Positions 39,858-54,898 of a DNA stretch of 64,000 nt are shown piece by piece. The notes below the pieces were generated by a model. That model saw nothing but the letters and a program-made list of their open reading frames with translations. It did no database searches and was not told where the DNA came from. The position numbers and the translations under genes were made by a program. The first letter of the stretch is position 1, and each line of letters opens with the position of its first letter. The stretch comes from Pseudomonadota bacterium (GTDB taxonomy: Bacteria > Pseudomonadota > Gammaproteobacteria > Burkholderiales > UBA11063), in the NCBI GenBank assembly GCA_021298175.1, contig JAJTDW010000003.1:26904-90903 (forward strand), given 5' to 3'.

Positions 39858-39858
<1 letters not shown>
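39031..39858 (-). CDS. kdsA: KDO-8-phosphate synthase
   Basis: [40 protein letters not shown]. Confidence 0.97.
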
Positions 39859-41525
<1,667 letters not shown>

Positions 41526-41791
41526 CTACGCACGCTCAATATCTTTCATTTCTACCCGCATATATGCACCGCCAAGTCTGCCTACATGCACATGATAACG
41601 TTTCAACACTTTCCATAAGTGGGGGGGTAACCCTCTCTAATAGATGAACAACGCCGTGTGACTCTATGTGCATAAGGCGTGAATCATGACGTATAATTAA
41701 AAAATGGAATTGGCATTAAACACATAATTATACACTAAAACATAGCTCTATACTTAAGCAAACAAATTAAAATATCTATCGACTTGATTCG

Positions 41792-42559
41792 TTAAACATT
41801 TAAAGTAATGATTACTGGCGTATGATCAGATGGACGCTCATTCTTACGCGGCTCAATATCTATTTCGCATTGAGTAGCAATGCTCTTTAGGTTATCATTA
41901 ATTAGAATATGGTCTATCCTTAAGCCAAGTTTTCTTCTAAATGCAAAATTACGATAGTCCCACCAGCTATAATTTTTTGGTTCCACGTGAAACAATCTAA
42001 AACTATCACTAAGCCCCAAATTGATCATTTTACCCCATGCTGAGCGTTCTTCATCAGTACACAAAACCTTACCTTGCCATTCTATTGGGTCATATAAATC
42101 AATATCTTGAGGCGCTATATTAAAATCCCCTAATATCATAAAATACTCATGTTTATTTAGGGATTCCTCCACGTAATTAGTCAAGTTCTCTAGCCATGAT
42201 AGTTTATATATAAACTTATCACTAGTTGTTGATTCCCCATTTACTACATAAACACACATTATGCGTACCCCATTTATGGTAGCAGTAATTACCCGCTTCT
42301 GTGGGTCATCAAAACTAGGCATATCCATATAAACGTCATGAATGGGTAGCTTTGATATTATCGCCACTCCATTGTAGGTTTTTTGTCCATTAAATACGCA
42401 ATGATAACCCAAACTAGTAAAAGCCTCTATTGGGAAATTTGCGTTATCTAACTTTAACTCTTGTAATGCCAATACATCACAATTACTTTTTTGCATCCAC
42501 TCTATAACCTGAGGCAACCTCACTTTTAGAGAATTTACGTTCCACGTTGCTATTTGCAT
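41792..42559 (-). CDS. xth: Exodeoxyribonuclease III
   Basis: ATWNVNSLK, LQELK, YNGVAI, GDFNIAP, GLRIDHIL, SDHTPV. Confidence 0.95.
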   Translation of the reverse strand: MQIATWNVNSLKVRLPQVIEWMQKSNCDVLALQELKLDNANFPIEAFTSLGYHCVFNGQKTYNGVAIISKLPIHDVYMDMPSFDDPQKRVITATINGVRIMCVYVVNGESTTSDKFIYKLSWLENLTNYVEESLNKHEYFMILGDFNIAPQDIDLYDPIEWQGKVLCTDEERSAWGKMINLGLSDSFRLFHVEPKNYSWWDYRNFAFRRKLGLRIDHILINDNLKSIATQCEIDIEPRKNERPSDHTPVIITLNV

Positions 42560-47231: not shown

Positions 47232-50200
47232 TTATATAAACATAATCGACAACTCACGTACAACAGCTGATAGCATTGATAAATCTAACGTTTTATAGCT
47301 CTGCAATTCATCAAGCATCTCATTAATTTGCCTCACTTTTACAGATTCGTACTTAATCCAAGCAGAAGCAAATTTTAAATCATTGTAGGAAGAGGCATAC
47401 TTAACTGCATGACGAATAAAAGTGCTATATAACATATAACCATCTGCTAATAATGATGAACGTGATAACGCTTGCCACTTATTATGTTCAGGTAAAGCAA
47501 TTAAACTTCTGCGCAACCAATCAATTCTAAGCACTCTACCAATATAGAAGTAATTACTAGCTACAGCACCTAAATCATGATTGGATTCCTGCGCTAAAAT
47601 TGCAACATCCAATAATTGTGGGAAAAAACTGCTTCTAGCCATTAAGGCTGCCAAACTTTCAGGCACTTTGTCATGAATGAATGATGCCTCTAAATCTTTA
47701 ACCATTGAATAACAATTAACTGTCAATAAACTTGGGATTAATGCCAATAAATTTGTTACTGAATCTTTATAATTCACTACCAGTTGTGAAACTAAATCCT
47801 GATTTTTAATATTTCTTAATATCCAACGAGTTAAACGCTCTAAAGATTTTTTTATTCTAATTAGCATTTGTATTTGAACATCAGCACTAATTATATTATC
47901 TAAAGCATCCACTTGTTTTATCATATCCTCTGCCCCAAGCAGTTTATATGCAGCCCAAAATGCTCTAACAATTTGTGGTGCCCCTATGCGCAATTCATCC
48001 TCAAACCTAGATACAAAAGTAATACCCATTCTATTTACAACTAGATTAGCTATCTGATTTGCAATAATTTCTTTGCGTAAATAATGATTATCAATATAAT
48101 CTCTATAGTGAGTTTGTAGATATTTAGGAAAATAATTAACTAGTAATTCATTAAATATTTTATCTTCAACTAAATTAGATGCTGAAATTTCTTTATTTAA
48201 CCTAATTTTAGAATAAGCTAAAATAACTGCCAATTCAGGCATTGTCATTCCAGTACCTAATCGCTGACGCTCTAATATTTCTTGAGAATTAGGCAGAAAC
48301 TCAATTGCACGATCTAATTCGCCACATTTTTCTAGTTTTTCCATAAAATTAATACACGCAGTAAATAACTCTTTTGCACGCTTATCTGCATAGCGTAGAA
48401 TTTGGGTTTGTAAATAATTATCCTGTAATACCAAGTGCCCAACATCCTGAGTCATACTTTCTAAAATTTTATTACGTTCATCTGTACTCATCGAAGTTCT
48501 ATGCATAACATCAGAAAATAAAATCTTAATATTTACTTCATGATCAGAGCAATCAACCCCGGCAGAGTTGTCTATTGCATCAGTACACACAAAGCCACCA
48601 TACTTAGCAAATTCTACCCTGCCTAGTTGAGTTGCCCCTAAATTACCCCCCTCAACAAATACGTTGGCTCTTATTTCGTCACCATTAACCCTGAGCATAT
48701 CATTAGTCTTATCTTTTGCCATATCATTAGACTCAAGGGAAGATTTAATATATGTGCCAATCCCTCCGTTATAAAGCATATCTACATTTAATTTAAGCAA
48801 TTGATTAATTAAATTATTTGGCGTCATCTCTTCTGCATCAACTTTTAATAAAGCCTTAACGGCAATTGATAGCGGTATTGTTTTCAAAGAACGCTCAAAT
48901 ACTCCACCACCTGAAGAAATTTTAGCAATATCATAATCAGACCAACTAGAACGTGGCAGATCAAATAACCGCTGTCTTTCAGCAAATGACTCTGCAGCAT
49001 CTGGGTTTGGATCTAAAAATATATGTTGGTGATTAAATGCAGCAACTAGCCTTATATGTTTTGACAATAACATCCCATTACCAAATACATCTCCAGCCAT
49101 ATCACCAATACCAACAACAGTAAAATCTTCCGCCTGAATATTAATGCCTAAATGACGAAAATGTCGCTTGGCAGATTCCCATGCCCCTCTTGCTGTAATC
49201 CCCATTTTTTTATGGTCATATCCAGCGGACCCACCCGAGGCAAAAGCATCTCCTAACCAAAACCCATACTGCTGCGACAATTGATTAGCATAATCAGAAA
49301 AAGTCGCAGTACCTTTGTCTGCAGCTACAACCAAATATGGGTCATCATCATCATATCTCACTAATCCATGAGGTATTATAATTTTACCTGACACTATATT
49401 ATCGGTTAAATCTAATAATCCACATATAAATGATTGATAGCAAGCCACACCTTCTGCTAAATAAGCATCTCTATTGCTTGCTAAGGGCAACTTCTTGCAT
49501 ATAAAACCACCTTTTGAGCCAGTAGGTACAATTACTGAATTTTTTACAATCTGAGCTTTTACCAAACCTAGAACTTCTGTTCTAAAATCTTCCTTACGAT
49601 CTGACCAACGTATACCACCACGGGATACTTTACCACCACGTAAATGAACCCCCTCAAAGCTCATAGAATATATAAATATTTCATATAAAGGCTTGGGTTT
49701 AGGTAAAAAATCAAGATGCTCAGATTTTAACTTAAAAGAAATATATGGCTTATTTAAACCAGAGTGGTCTAGTTGATAATAATTGGTTCGAAGCATTGCT
49801 TCTATTATAGATAGATAGGATTTTAAAATTTGATCATCATCAATGCTATTAACTTTAGATAACTCTTGAATAATATTTTCTTTAAAATCATTAACTTTAT
49901 TTATATCATGACTTGCAATATTAAATTTGGCATCAAACATTAAAAATAAATCTCGAGCCACTTCTGGATATAAAGTTAGGCTCTCTTTTAAATATTGTTT
50001 AGAAAATGGCAAAGCTGTTTGCGCTATATAATGAGTCATACTTCTTAATAGCACAACCTGATGAAAGTTTAACCCACTGGTTAAAATCAGCTTGTTTAGT
50101 ATATCGTTTTCAACTTCACGATTAAAAGCTGCAACAACAGCATTTTTAAAATTTGCCTCTATTAATGGTTCTTCTAGCTTATGCGCCCATTGCTCTAAAA

Positions 50201-50597
50201 TCAGAACCCCAAAATCACATACATATACAGCATCTTTATTTCCTAATATAATCTTTCTGGGCTGTTCATCTAATAACTTTACCCCAAAATTTTCAATTAA
50301 AGGAAGCCCACGTGATAAGCTAACAGGCTCATTATATCTAAATAATTTAACTTGCCATATGTTTTTGCGATCTCCTTGCCCTTTAGATAAGCTAATTGCA
50401 TATTGATTTGTATCTGACAGTTGATTAATCATTACAATATCATTAGCTATCTCCGTAGTAGAATAATTGTTAAAATAATCATCTGAAAAAACATTAGCGA
50501 ACTTATTATATAAACTCTCTGTACTCTTCTCATCAAACTTAGTCATTAAATCTGCCTTTAACTGTTCAAATACTGCATCCATCTGCAAAGTAGACAT
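47232..50597 (-). CDS. NAD-specific glutamate dehydrogenase, large type, with short N-terminus
   Basis: GVHLRGGKVSRGGIRWSDR.EDFRTEVLGLVKAQ.VKN, GIGDMAGDVFGNGMLLS, TDAIDNSAGVDCSDHEVNIKI. Confidence 0.92.
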   Translation of the reverse strand: MSTLQMDAVFEQLKADLMTKFDEKSTESLYNKFANVFSDDYFNNYSTTEIANDIVMINQLSDTNQYAISLSKGQGDRKNIWQVKLFRYNEPVSLSRGLPLIENFGVKLLDEQPRKIILGNKDAVYVCDFGVLILEQWAHKLEEPLIEANFKNAVVAAFNREVENDILNKLILTSGLNFHQVVLLRSMTHYIAQTALPFSKQYLKESLTLYPEVARDLFLMFDAKFNIASHDINKVNDFKENIIQELSKVNSIDDDQILKSYLSIIEAMLRTNYYQLDHSGLNKPYISFKLKSEHLDFLPKPKPLYEIFIYSMSFEGVHLRGGKVSRGGIRWSDRKEDFRTEVLGLVKAQIVKNSVIVPTGSKGGFICKKLPLASNRDAYLAEGVACYQSFICGLLDLTDNIVSGKIIIPHGLVRYDDDDPYLVVAADKGTATFSDYANQLSQQYGFWLGDAFASGGSAGYDHKKMGITARGAWESAKRHFRHLGINIQAEDFTVVGIGDMAGDVFGNGMLLSKHIRLVAAFNHQHIFLDPNPDAAESFAERQRLFDLPRSSWSDYDIAKISSGGGVFERSLKTIPLSIAVKALLKVDAEEMTPNNLINQLLKLNVDMLYNGGIGTYIKSSLESNDMAKDKTNDMLRVNGDEIRANVFVEGGNLGATQLGRVEFAKYGGFVCTDAIDNSAGVDCSDHEVNIKILFSDVMHRTSMSTDERNKILESMTQDVGHLVLQDNYLQTQILRYADKRAKELFTACINFMEKLEKCGELDRAIEFLPNSQEILERQRLGTGMTMPELAVILAYSKIRLNKEISASNLVEDKIFNELLVNYFPKYLQTHYRDYIDNHYLRKEIIANQIANLVVNRMGITFVSRFEDELRIGAPQIVRAFWAAYKLLGAEDMIKQVDALDNIISADVQIQMLIRIKKSLERLTRWILRNIKNQDLVSQLVVNYKDSVTNLLALIPSLLTVNCYSMVKDLEASFIHDKVPESLAALMARSSFFPQLLDVAILAQESNHDLGAVASNYFYIGRVLRIDWLRRSLIALPEHNKWQALSRSSLLADGYMLYSTFIRHAVKYASSYNDLKFASAWIKYESVKVRQINEMLDELQSYKTLDLSMLSAVVRELSIMFI

Positions 50598-50702
50598 AAC
50601 AATAGTACCCTTAAAAATTTTCAATAGTCCATTATTTTAACACTAAATCCATAGTATAAGCACAAGACAAAGCAATATTTTGTAATAATTTTAATTTTTT
50701 AC

Positions 50703-51752: not shown

Positions 51753-51821
51753 TGAACTCGTTTCAGCCCCCCCTATAAGAAAGATACTGAATTTCATACG
51801 AGTGTGAAATTCAGTATGACG
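51745..51821. repeat. REP-like palindromic doublet downstream of efp
   Basis: 12-bp terminal IR CGTCATACTGAA/TTCAGTATGACG; inner perfect 13-bp stem 51784-51796/51805-51817. Confidence 0.75.
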
Positions 51822-51887: not shown

Positions 51888-52463
51888 TTATTTTCCTTCT
51901 TTATAACGCTCTGAGTACTCTCTAGTGGCGGTCTTCAGAACAATCTTTTCTCCAACATTGACAAAAGAAGGTACAACCACACGAATACCAATATCGAGTA
52001 TTGCTGGTTTATCCATCGCTGTAGCTGTAGCCCCTTTGATTTGAGGGTCAGTTTCCACAACAGTACATACAATTGTTGCGGGAAACTCAACTGCAAGAAC
52101 ACTTCCATCAACTAATTTAAGTTTTACATTAATCCCCTCTGATAAAAATACAACATCATTTCCTATTGTATCTGGAGTAACTGTAATTTGGCTATAATCT
52201 TCCATATTCATGAATATGTAATTTTCACCTTCTTTATATAATAAGGAACACTCAAGCTCTTCTGTTGATAAGCGCTCTATCGAATCAGTTGATCTAAATC
52301 CAACCTGAGCTTTTGAACCCGTTTGAATATTTCTCATTTCAGTTTGTATAACTGCACCACCACCAGTCCCTGATTTAACTGTACGTGTGCTTAATACCGC
52401 AAATTGACGACCATCATGCTGAATAATCCAACCTGAACGAAGATCGACTGCTTTTTCTTTCAT
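51888..52463 (-). CDS. efp: Elongation factor P, atypical (Thr33 at the loop tip)
   Basis: DLRSG.II.HDG, LYKEGENYIFMN..DY.Q, VVETDP.IKGATA, KPAIL..G..V.VP.F...GE.I...T....Y.ER. Start at ATG 52463 after AAAGGA. Confidence 0.9.
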   Translation of the reverse strand: MKEKAVDLRSGWIIQHDGRQFAVLSTRTVKSGTGGGAVIQTEMRNIQTGSKAQVGFRSTDSIERLSTEELECSLLYKEGENYIFMNMEDYSQITVTPDTIGNDVVFLSEGINVKLKLVDGSVLAVEFPATIVCTVVETDPQIKGATATAMDKPAILDIGIRVVVPSFVNVGEKIVLKTATREYSERYKEGK

Positions 52464-52552
52464 ATTGAGTTCCTTTTTATTATTGAAAATATTTTGTTTT
52501 GGGCTAATCAAAGCGGAGTGTTTCTATAAATCTTGCTTCAGAAACCGAAGCA

Positions 52553-53311
52553 TTACATAAGAAACTTACTCGATACATTACTATGTTGCAAAATCCATTG
52601 TTGAATTTCATTTGTCTCTTGCTCTGCAAGTAAGTATTGATTTAATGATGTATTAGCATCATGAAATCGATAGCGCAGAATAACATCTGGTAGATTAGTA
52701 GCCATAATATTTTGTGCAAAAACAAGTCTAGCAAATAGATCATAATCAGTACATACTTTATAGTATGAGTTATATCTCAAAGTATTTAATGCTGACTTAC
52801 GAAACATAACACTCGGATTCAGAAATGGCACTCCGTTAAAAAAGCTTTGCTTTAATTCGTCTATTGAGGATGAAGCCAAATAATTTAATCTCACGCTAGA
52901 TCCGTCTGGATAAAATCCATCAGCTTGTCCACCGACAAAACCAAACTCAGAGTTATCTTTTAAAAATTTAACTTGCTGTTCAAATCTAGTTGAAATACAA
53001 ATATCATCCTGATCCATCATAGCGATAAATGTACCTTGTGCGCGGTTAATTCCAATGTTTGAAGCTATAGCTATGCCACTATTTATTTTGCATGGTATCC
53101 AAATAATTCGGTCATCATTATAGCTTGAAACAATATGCTGCAATCTTGAATCATCTTGTGGGCTATCATTTACAATTAAAAACTCAAAATTTGAATAAGT
53201 CTGCTCAAGCACACTCTCAATAGCGTCTCGTAAATAAATTTCATAAGTTTGATAAATTGGCATCACCACACTAAGTTTGGTATTATTATAATTTATAATT
53301 TCACCCCTCAA
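52553..53311 (-). CDS. Glycosyltransferase family 2 (GT-A)
   Basis: LSVVMPIY, AIESVL.QTY.NFEFLIVND, N.GI..A.G.FIAMMDQDD, RFEQQV.FL. Confidence 0.9.
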   Translation of the reverse strand: MRGEIINYNNTKLSVVMPIYQTYEIYLRDAIESVLEQTYSNFEFLIVNDSPQDDSRLQHIVSSYNDDRIIWIPCKINSGIAIASNIGINRAQGTFIAMMDQDDICISTRFEQQVKFLKDNSEFGFVGGQADGFYPDGSSVRLNYLASSSIDELKQSFFNGVPFLNPSVMFRKSALNTLRYNSYYKVCTDYDLFARLVFAQNIMATNLPDVILRYRFHDANTSLNQYLLAEQETNEIQQWILQHSNVSSKFLM

Positions 53312-54238: not shown

Positions 54239-54898
54239 TTATAGAACTCTGCCAAGTAAATATACCACCCTACCCACAACTTTTAAATCATCATGCATAT
54301 TAAAATGTTTTTCAGGATAAACAGGATTTTCAGAACGAGCAATAAGCTTGCCGCTACCAATTTCTTTAAACATCTTTTTTATAAAAATATCATTCTCCAT
54401 AGATATCGCATAAATTCGATTGTCAATTATTTCGTTCTGGGAAATATCCACAATAACTTTTTGCCCATCATAAAGCTCTGGAACCATGCTATCGCCTTGT
54501 ATTTCAAAGACACACAGGGTCTCCTCCTTCCAGCCAAATATCTTAATGTCGCTACGATCAACGGAATGATAACGAACAATATTTTGTTCAAAAATTGTGT
54601 TGCCGTGCCCTGCTGATAAACGATTACTATATACTGGAATATGCAGTACTGTTTCATATTCAGCAATTCCACCATCCAAATCAAGATTACCAGGTTGCAA
54701 CTTAAACAACTGTTCTACAGTTTTTGCAACTTTAGAGCCAAACTGCCTGTTTCCCTTTGTAATCATATAATATGGCGTTGGGCTAATTCCATACTTTTTT
54801 GCAAAAGCATTTATCGAACCATCAAAATGCTCTTTAACCAAGCGCAAGAAGTTATTAACTCGAATAGCGTTAAGTCTATCACTCACTTTATACCTCAT
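54239..54898 (-). CDS. CI/LexA-like repressor (HTH + S24 peptidase)
   Basis: N-terminal HTH-like region; SAG cleavage site (RLSAGHG), GDSM Ser, IKKM Lys. Confidence 0.88.
   Translation of the reverse strand: MRYKVSDRLNAIRVNNFLRLVKEHFDGSINAFAKKYGISPTPYYMITKGNRQFGSKVAKTVEQLFKLQPGNLDLDGGIAEYETVLHIPVYSNRLSAGHGNTIFEQNIVRYHSVDRSDIKIFGWKEETLCVFEIQGDSMVPELYDGQKVIVDISQNEIIDNRIYAISMENDIFIKKMFKEIGSGKLIARSENPVYPEKHFNMHDDLKVVGRVVYLLGRVL

Follow-up and report, generated by a model that had tools for sequence, protein, structure and literature searches.

To our knowledge, every characterised elongation factor P (EF-P) and every characterised a/eIF5A carries a lysine or an arginine at its loop tip. Reviews from 2026 describe Lys or Arg tips only, together with four modification strategies (PMC12856214, PMC13602936), and the tip residues recorded in the literature are K, R, N, Q, M and A (PMC6544042). 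For about half of the bacterial EF-Ps, the activation mode is unknown (PMC11388002). Here we describe an EF-P that carries a threonine at the loop tip (Thr-type EF-P). Its gene lies in a window of 64,000 nucleotides, by which we mean the whole stretch of DNA that was analysed (contig JAJTDW010000003.1, positions 26,904 to 90,903, of assembly GCA_021298175.1), and the gene directly upstream of it encodes a member of glycosyltransferase family 2 (GT2). The host is a metagenome-assembled genome (MAG) of 1.66 Mb in 45 contigs, with an estimated completeness of 100% and a GC content of 33%. Its relatives are labelled Neisseriaceae, Burkholderiales or 'Aquella sp.' in the public records. A search of the literature retrieved no Thr-tip EF-P, no O-glycosylation of EF-P and no system that combines a GT2 with EF-P.

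In the E. coli type of EF-P, EpmA and EpmB (and EpmC) give rise to beta-lysyl-Lys34. The closest sequence relatives of the Thr-type EF-P are Lys-type proteins (loop QPGKGGA) with an EpmA-like gene alongside, and therefore Thr33 sits at the position of the modified lysine. Compared to the E. coli type, however, the loop has Thr instead of the lysine, Ser instead of the proline at position −2 and one additional Gly. The Thr-type loop thus reads S-G-T where the EpmAB(C) system has a Lys tip preceded by Pro at −2, and EpmA itself (TIGR00462) was found above the cut-off in none of 41 related genomes, which gave matches to LysRS, AspRS and AsnRS only. EarP-type EF-Ps, rhamnosylated on Arg32 in Pseudomonas, Shewanella, Neisseria and most Betaproteobacteria, resemble the module proposed below in that a dedicated glycosyltransferase gene adjoins efp. 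In other families of the same order, EarP is encoded directly beside efp in all 12 genomes with a KSGRNAA loop. The EarP-type and Thr-type loops share their K-S-G start, with Ser instead of Pro at −2, but the EarP type has Arg at the tip and its loop is one residue shorter. Moreover, EarP is a GT-B fold enzyme of family GT104 that forms an N-linkage, whereas the partner described here belongs to GT2, has a GT-A fold and about 250 amino acids, and would form an O-linkage. The two kinds of EF-P are unrelated on the tree, and EarP (PF10093) was found neither in the host genome nor in any of the 25 genomes of the genus that were searched.

The remaining described types also differ from the Thr type. 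The 5-aminopentanolyl-Lys type of Firmicutes (YmfI/GsaB/YnbB) has Lys32 at the tip, where we find Thr. EfpL (YeiP) and the PGKGP type of Actinobacteria are like the Thr type in that their loops are non-canonical and that a known modification may not be required for function. EfpL, however, has an Arg tip and always occurs together with a canonical EF-P, and neither holds for the Thr type, which is the sole EF-P of its genome. The PGKGP type has a lysine flanked by prolines, a motif that is absent from the K-S-G-T-G-G-G-A loop. Identity with EfpL/YeiP was also rejected on the basis of the family models, as the scores for NF003392 (151.5 against a cut-off of 216) and TIGR02178 (143.3 against 264) were too low, the tip is Thr and a second intact EF-P is lacking. 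The first-pass annotation of this DNA had stated that a Thr tip fits none of the known types, and with EarP and EpmA absent and the EfpL models below their cut-offs this statement held.

The Thr-type gene encodes a genuine three-domain EF-P. PF08207, PF01132 and PF09285 all scored above their cut-offs, giving the architecture of a KOW-like N-terminal, an OB and a C-terminal domain. The C-terminal domain, in which an intact EF-P signature had been noticed, was matched over all model positions (1-56/56). The score with the NCBIfam subfamily model PRK00529/NF001810 was 190.1 bits (cut-off 161), and that with the equivalog model TIGR00038 was 185.4, which is 0.4 bits short of its cut-off of 185.8. 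Codon 33 is ACT (52367-52365, minus strand) and encodes Thr33 within the sequence V29-K-S-G-T33-G-G-G-A, a loop of 8 residues compared to the canonical 7. In HMMER alignments to solved EF-Ps, T33 was placed opposite the modified lysine with a one-residue insertion after it, and a MAFFT alignment with 149 representative EF-Ps placed Thr33 in the same way. The column that holds the conserved tip Lys or Arg of EF-Ps is thus occupied by Thr33. In the AlphaFold2 model (predicted local distance difference test (pLDDT) 88), beta3 spans residues 19-29, the loop 30-37 and beta4 38-45, and T33 and G34 are predicted to form the loop tip. No Lys or Arg could be placed at the tip, K30 being the first loop residue, next to beta3. 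The codon reading and both alignments therefore confirm the Thr at the EF-P tip that had been reported from the sequence.

Homologues were collected from independent MAGs and metagenomes, which gave 49 distinct full-length sequences with a lowest pairwise identity of 81%. Residues R27 to A37 are identical in 49 of 49, and the loop codons vary synonymously (TCA/TCT/TCC, GGG/GGA/GGT and ACT/ACA). The ratio of nonsynonymous to synonymous substitution rates (dN/dS) of the Thr-type efp had a median of 0.06 and a maximum of 0.13 over 91 orthologue pairs, so that the gene is under strong purifying selection. In a HMMER scan of 1.84 billion representatives, the Thr-type family formed one single cluster at 50% identity (matched at 91% identity), and the next match was at 39%. 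The 149 clusters that follow have K, R, N or, in rare cases, Q at the tip, and T was seen in none of them. The scan of the GTDB species genomes yielded 23 Thr-type loci, all of them in MAGs. These data show a distinct and constrained Thr-tip EF-P subtype.

It had been proposed at first that the gene belongs to a new subtype or is an additional paralogue, and that the genome be searched for a second efp, for earP and for epmA. The isolated cluster and the lack of Thr among its 149 neighbours support the subtype. The paralogue did not stand, as the Thr type is the sole EF-P of its genome and has replaced a native Arg-type protein (see below). Besides the lack of EarP and EpmA, the search revealed one intact EF-P gene in the host genome. 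As a second efp, the only weak EFP_N match elsewhere in this genome was rejected, since it is a relic of the Arg-type gene and not a functional gene.

The product of the upstream gene matches PF00535 with 88 bits (8e-25). Its AlphaFold2 model (pLDDT 93.5) has a GT-A fold, with template modelling (TM) scores of 0.66-0.78 to GT2 structures. The motifs NDSP.D and DxDD (D100/D102/D103) as well as D189 are conserved, and the dN/dS is 0.13. The PF00535 match, the GT-A fold, the DxD motif and the catalytic-base Asp all identify the protein as a member of glycosyltransferase family 2. It has no hydrophobic segment and an isoelectric point of 4.9. The clade of its orthologues is sharply bounded, with identities of at least 63% inside and at most 42% beyond it. 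The closest outgroup GT2s are about 340 amino acids long (about 40% identity) and are encoded in O-antigen/ABC-transporter clusters. A wider family of efp-linked GT2s was considered and dismissed, because the nearest non-orthologous GT2s lie in O-antigen clusters without efp. In the window, the GT2 gene is surrounded by a glyoxalase-like gene, an S24 repressor, pdxJ and cutA, with no polysaccharide genes among these neighbours, and the host genome contains only one other GT2-like match.

In 13 of the 14 loci within the genus, the GT2 gene directly precedes the Thr-type efp and has the same orientation. It also adjoins efp on metagenome contigs on which the GT2 is only 63-66% identical. A gene-family scan covering the window, the 23 loci from the GTDB species genomes and two metagenome contigs showed the order GT2-then-efp in 21 of the 24 loci with a judgeable upstream side, and almost no flanking family apart from GT2 was common to the loci (families F11-F90). 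In the three cases in which the two genes are not adjacent, a GT2 orthologue (68-73% identity) is encoded elsewhere in the genome. Furthermore, each of the 15 Thr-type genomes of the genus has a GT2 orthologue of at least 70% identity, and the 7 genomes of the genus that have only an Arg-type EF-P all lack one, the best GT2 match there reaching at most 38%. The co-inheritance of the Thr-type EF-P and GT2 thus exceeds what physical linkage alone explains. The GT2-efp spacer is 30-286 nt long in other species, and the AAAGGAA-N6-ATG context of efp is conserved. A consensus scan of the spacer in the window (52464-52552) gave no promoter-like or terminator-like site, and it was uninformative, as the total number of matches did not exceed that of shuffled controls.

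Two further genes were noticed around the GT2-efp pair. In the genome G016 (contig C86), the upstream neighbour of efp is, instead of GT2, an ankyrin-repeat protein of 393 amino acids (open-ended; locus L015, 2390-3571). This protein, the low GC content and the small genomes hint at a host-associated (protist) lifestyle of the genus. In the window, a CI/LexA-like repressor with, judged from its sequence, a helix-turn-helix and an S24 peptidase-like C-terminus is encoded at 54239-54898 (minus strand), about 0.9 kb upstream of GT2-efp. Possibly, this gene is what remains of a prophage close to the presumably acquired module.

Other species of the genus have an Arg-type EF-P with the loop Y-H-V-H-V-G-G-R-G-G-A, which shares 33-39% identity with the Thr type. 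Its loop also has 8 residues, and across species the two proteins replace each other. The Arg type differs in its Arg tip, in its fixed locus xth-efp-pyrG and in having neither a GT2 partner nor EarP. The HVGGRGGA subfamily (loci L019-L028 and L030 in G004, G006, G008, G009, G015, G017, G021, G027, G032, G037 and G038) also occurs in four further families of the order, again without EarP and without EpmA. Among the 22 genomes of the genus with an EF-P match, 14 have only the Thr type, 7 have only the Arg type and one (G010) retains both genes intact.

At the native locus of the host genome, a relic of the Arg-type efp is left (Table 1). Its translation, LWKVLKRYHVHVGRLGGAYMRVEMKDIERA*, is 80-87% identical to residues ~20-50 of the intact Arg-type EF-Ps of sister species, and about 400 nt of the native gene are missing. 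A differently shaped relic, covering residues 1-58 with two stop codons, is located beside pyrG in G013 (C3:5765-5941) and G014 (C66:4698-4871). As the native locus is fixed and the relics are found there, the Arg type is ancestral, and at least two independent replacements by the Thr type have taken place.

The relationships among the species were taken from two single-gene proxies, ValS and PyrG. On both trees, Thr-only and Arg-only genomes are interleaved with supports of 94-100. The ValS tree contains the groups (G000_T, G009_R, G003_T) with 100/98 and (G007_T, (G023_T, G017_R)) with 97/93 and 99/95, and the PyrG tree contains (G009_R, (G000_T, G003_T)), (G017_R, G001_T) and (G007_T, G006_R). 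At the base of an all-Thr clade stands G010 with its two efp genes. Judged from these proxies, at least four losses of the Thr module and at least four of the Arg gene have occurred.

In the maximum-likelihood tree, the Thr clade is placed inside the Lys-type EF-Ps with the sequence H-V-K-P-G-K-G-G-A, on a stem of 0.89 substitutions per site. The next-best GTDB matches are uncultured alphaproteobacterial EF-Ps with 43-47% identity, the loop I-Q-P-G-K-G-G-A-F and an N-terminus similar to that of the Thr type (MKEQANQIRPGWV...). Divergently adjacent to each of their efp genes, a 350-aa paralogue of class-II aminoacyl-tRNA synthetases (EpmA-like) is encoded. These relatives correspond to loci L097-L100 and L133, and in L097 a LexA gene is located just downstream of efp. 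The flanks G-x-G-G-A-F-I-Q align unambiguously between the Thr type and these proteins, which shows the exchanges of Pro to Ser at −2 and of Lys to Thr at the tip and the insertion of one Gly. That the Thr type derives from the EarP type or from the Arg type of the genus was rejected on the basis of the tree and of these 43-47% identical relatives. Since the closest relatives are Lys-type, EpmA-linked and alphaproteobacterial, the Thr type entered from outside the lineage. We tentatively suggest an alphaproteobacterial donor, with this caution because a compositional attraction caused by low GC could bias the placement on the tree.

The demand for EF-P function seems to continue in these species. 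The Pro-Pro-Pro motif of ValS (QLPPPNVTGTLHMGH) is intact in the host genome and in every Thr-type genome checked. In about 1,420 open reading frames (ORFs) of the host genome, we counted 405 PP and 15 PPP motifs, with 527 PP expected, which is a mild depletion. Brewer and Wagner associated dysfunction of EF-P with the loss of such polyproline motifs (PMC11388002). The retention of the PPP and PP motifs thus argues that the Thr-type protein is likely a working EF-P. The valS gene of the host genome (C40:2441-5037, outside the window) is itself apparently split by a frameshift near C40:4681-4714, with the PPP motif intact in the N-terminal piece. Compared with E. coli ValS, it also lacks about 55 residues between the HIGH region and 'LVNWD'. 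This lesion could be an assembly error of the MAG or real damage to an essential gene.

We propose, with a probability of roughly one half, that the Thr-type EF-P and GT2 form an acquired activation module of two genes, comparable to efp-earP and efp-epmA. With a nucleotide sugar as donor, GT2 would O-glycosylate the Thr33 hydroxyl group, which is located at the tip of a loop that is rich in Gly and one residue longer than usual. The attached sugar, substituting for beta-lysine or rhamnose, would point toward the peptidyl-transferase centre, stabilising the CCA end of the P-site tRNA in the way of beta-lysyl-Lys34 and rhamnosyl-Arg32, and this stabilisation would lead to the rescue of polyproline stalls. 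Such a module would make the native Arg-type EF-P redundant, which would result in the repeated loss of one or the other system in the genus. At the same even odds, this would be a fifth and chemically new way of EF-P activation, in which a dedicated soluble GT2 O-glycosylates a tip Thr and which, after horizontal acquisition, repeatedly displaced the Arg type in a single betaproteobacterial genus. Cytoplasmic GT2-family enzymes that directly O-glycosylate proteins have a precedent in GmaR of Listeria monocytogenes, which adds O-linked N-acetylglucosamine to Ser/Thr of flagellin; its substrate and domain organisation differ from those of the partner GT2. The first-pass annotation had left it at an EF-P that is either unmodified or carries an unknown modification, and the neighbouring GT2 turns the second of these options into a concrete hypothesis.

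A strongly constrained Thr-tip EF-P that is present as the sole copy challenges the need for a long cationic side chain at the peptidyl-transferase centre, and with the co-inherited GT2 the unknown modification becomes a specific two-gene hypothesis. If the proposal is correct, O-glycosylation would be added to the chemistry of EF-P and a protein-specific GT2 to the known enzymes. The system would be convergent with the rhamnosylation of Arg by EarP, and a basic tip residue would be dispensable for EF-P function. In addition, the genus would show a natural replacement of a modification system in progress, with species that have both, one or relics of the systems, and the module could possibly be used as an orthogonal EF-P/modifier pair in translation engineering.

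Several observations weigh against the proposed module. GT2 enzymes act overwhelmingly on glycan or lipid acceptors. Fold and sequence searches of the PDB with the partner GT2 returned generic polysaccharide GT2s only, at about 20% identity, and an assignment of the acceptor by homology was abandoned, as these enzymes say nothing about it. The match to GmaR is weak (E = 6.9e-6) and restricted to the N-terminal half. With spacers reaching 286 nt, co-transcription is no more than plausible, and at locus L085 (G044 C2:12773-13488) GT2 is split by a frameshift into pieces of 178 and 91 amino acids, which reflects either a sequencing error or a natural loss of GT2 function. All data come from one genus-level clade of uncultured MAGs, in which repeated co-occurrence is not deeply independent, and an adjacent GT2 and efp can be removed by one deletion. 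Finally, there are known examples, EfpL and the actinobacterial PGKGP type, of EF-Ps whose altered or extended loops carry no modification, so the Gly-rich loop of 8 residues might work unmodified. In that case, the backbone or Thr atoms of the longer loop would be brought near the CCA end, a mechanism that has been proposed for the extended loops of these two types, and GT2 would be an unrelated co-acquired enzyme of the cell envelope or of another process. The loop of 8 instead of 7 residues, the documented unmodified EF-Ps with extended loops (PMC13602936, PMC12856214), the polysaccharide enzymes as closest homologues of GT2, the long spacers and the split GT2 would all agree with this. Yet a passenger GT2 should not stay adjacent while all other neighbours change, should not persist in three genomes after unlinking and should not vanish each time the Thr-type efp is lost, which happened on four or more separate branches. 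GT2 is moreover under purifying selection, soluble and without polysaccharide-pathway neighbours, in a genome of 1.66 Mb that has one other GT2-like match. We consider an unmodified Thr type unlikely, though it has to be taken seriously.

A coupling of GT2 and EF-P by another route, through a different EF-P residue such as K30 or S31, through another translation component or with Thr33 being modified otherwise (e.g. by phosphate from an enzyme encoded elsewhere), is improbable. Although K30 and S31 are invariant and within the loop as well, K30 is the counterpart of the unmodified K31 of E. coli, and in the alignments it is Thr33 that falls exactly on the Lys or Arg that is modified in each of the characterised systems. 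Phosphorylation of EF-P on Ser/Thr occurs in Streptococcus suis at S148 and T176, which are outside the loop (PMC12595652), and no kinase or other enzyme with a linkage like that of GT2 was found. There is an even slimmer chance that the Thr-type protein is neofunctionalised or weakly active and no longer a polyproline rescue factor, with ABCF proteins (Uup/YfmR-like) and a YebC2-like protein covering the stalls. It would explain the absence of the basic tip residue needed by all characterised EF-Ps, the long stem branch of 0.89 substitutions per site and the mild depletion of PP motifs. However, the Thr type has repeatedly replaced the native Arg type as the sole copy, its three domains are intact at a dN/dS of 0.06, and the PPP of ValS and hundreds of PP motifs are kept, where dysfunction of EF-P is linked to motif loss (PMC11388002). 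As for an artefact, the host genome is a MAG of 45 contigs with an apparently frameshifted valS, and one might suspect that an error arose during sequencing or assembly or that the contig is a contaminant. This is effectively refuted by the identical loops of 49 distinct sequences, which come from many independent assemblies. Moreover, efp is located on the same contig as the relic of the native locus and housekeeping genes, and the estimated contamination is 0.53%. A sequencing error, a private mutation and a Lys or Arg at the tip, which had been named at the outset as what would overturn the Thr tip, were each checked with these homologues and the alignments, and none of them was found. The proposed O-glycosylation module thus remains our preferred reading of the features listed in Table 1.

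Table 1. Positions of the Thr-type efp, its GT2 partner and related features in the window.
Feature	Position	Strand	Remarks
Thr-type efp	51888..52463	-	191 aa + stop; three EF-P domains; sole intact EF-P gene of the genome
beta3-beta4 loop K-S-G-T-G-G-G-A, codons 30-37	52353..52376	-	sequence reading; limits from the AlphaFold2 model
GT2-efp spacer, 89 nt	52464..52552	-	AAGGAA ribosome-binding site before the efp ATG; from the sequence
Orphan soluble GT2, 252 aa, candidate EF-P modifier	52553..53311	-	PF00535 8e-25; TTG start uncertain by a few codons
Arg-type efp relic, 90 nt	41532..41621	-	between xth (41792-42559) and pyrG (39858-41495); syntenic native locus
Terminator-like hairpin with T-rich tail	51784..51817	-	~70 nt past the efp stop; consensus scan only

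Downstream of efp, an ORF of 1130 amino acids at 47232-50624 (minus strand) resembles, from its sequence, an NAD-specific glutamate dehydrogenase. It is noticeably shorter than the usual enzyme of this kind, which has about 1600 amino acids.

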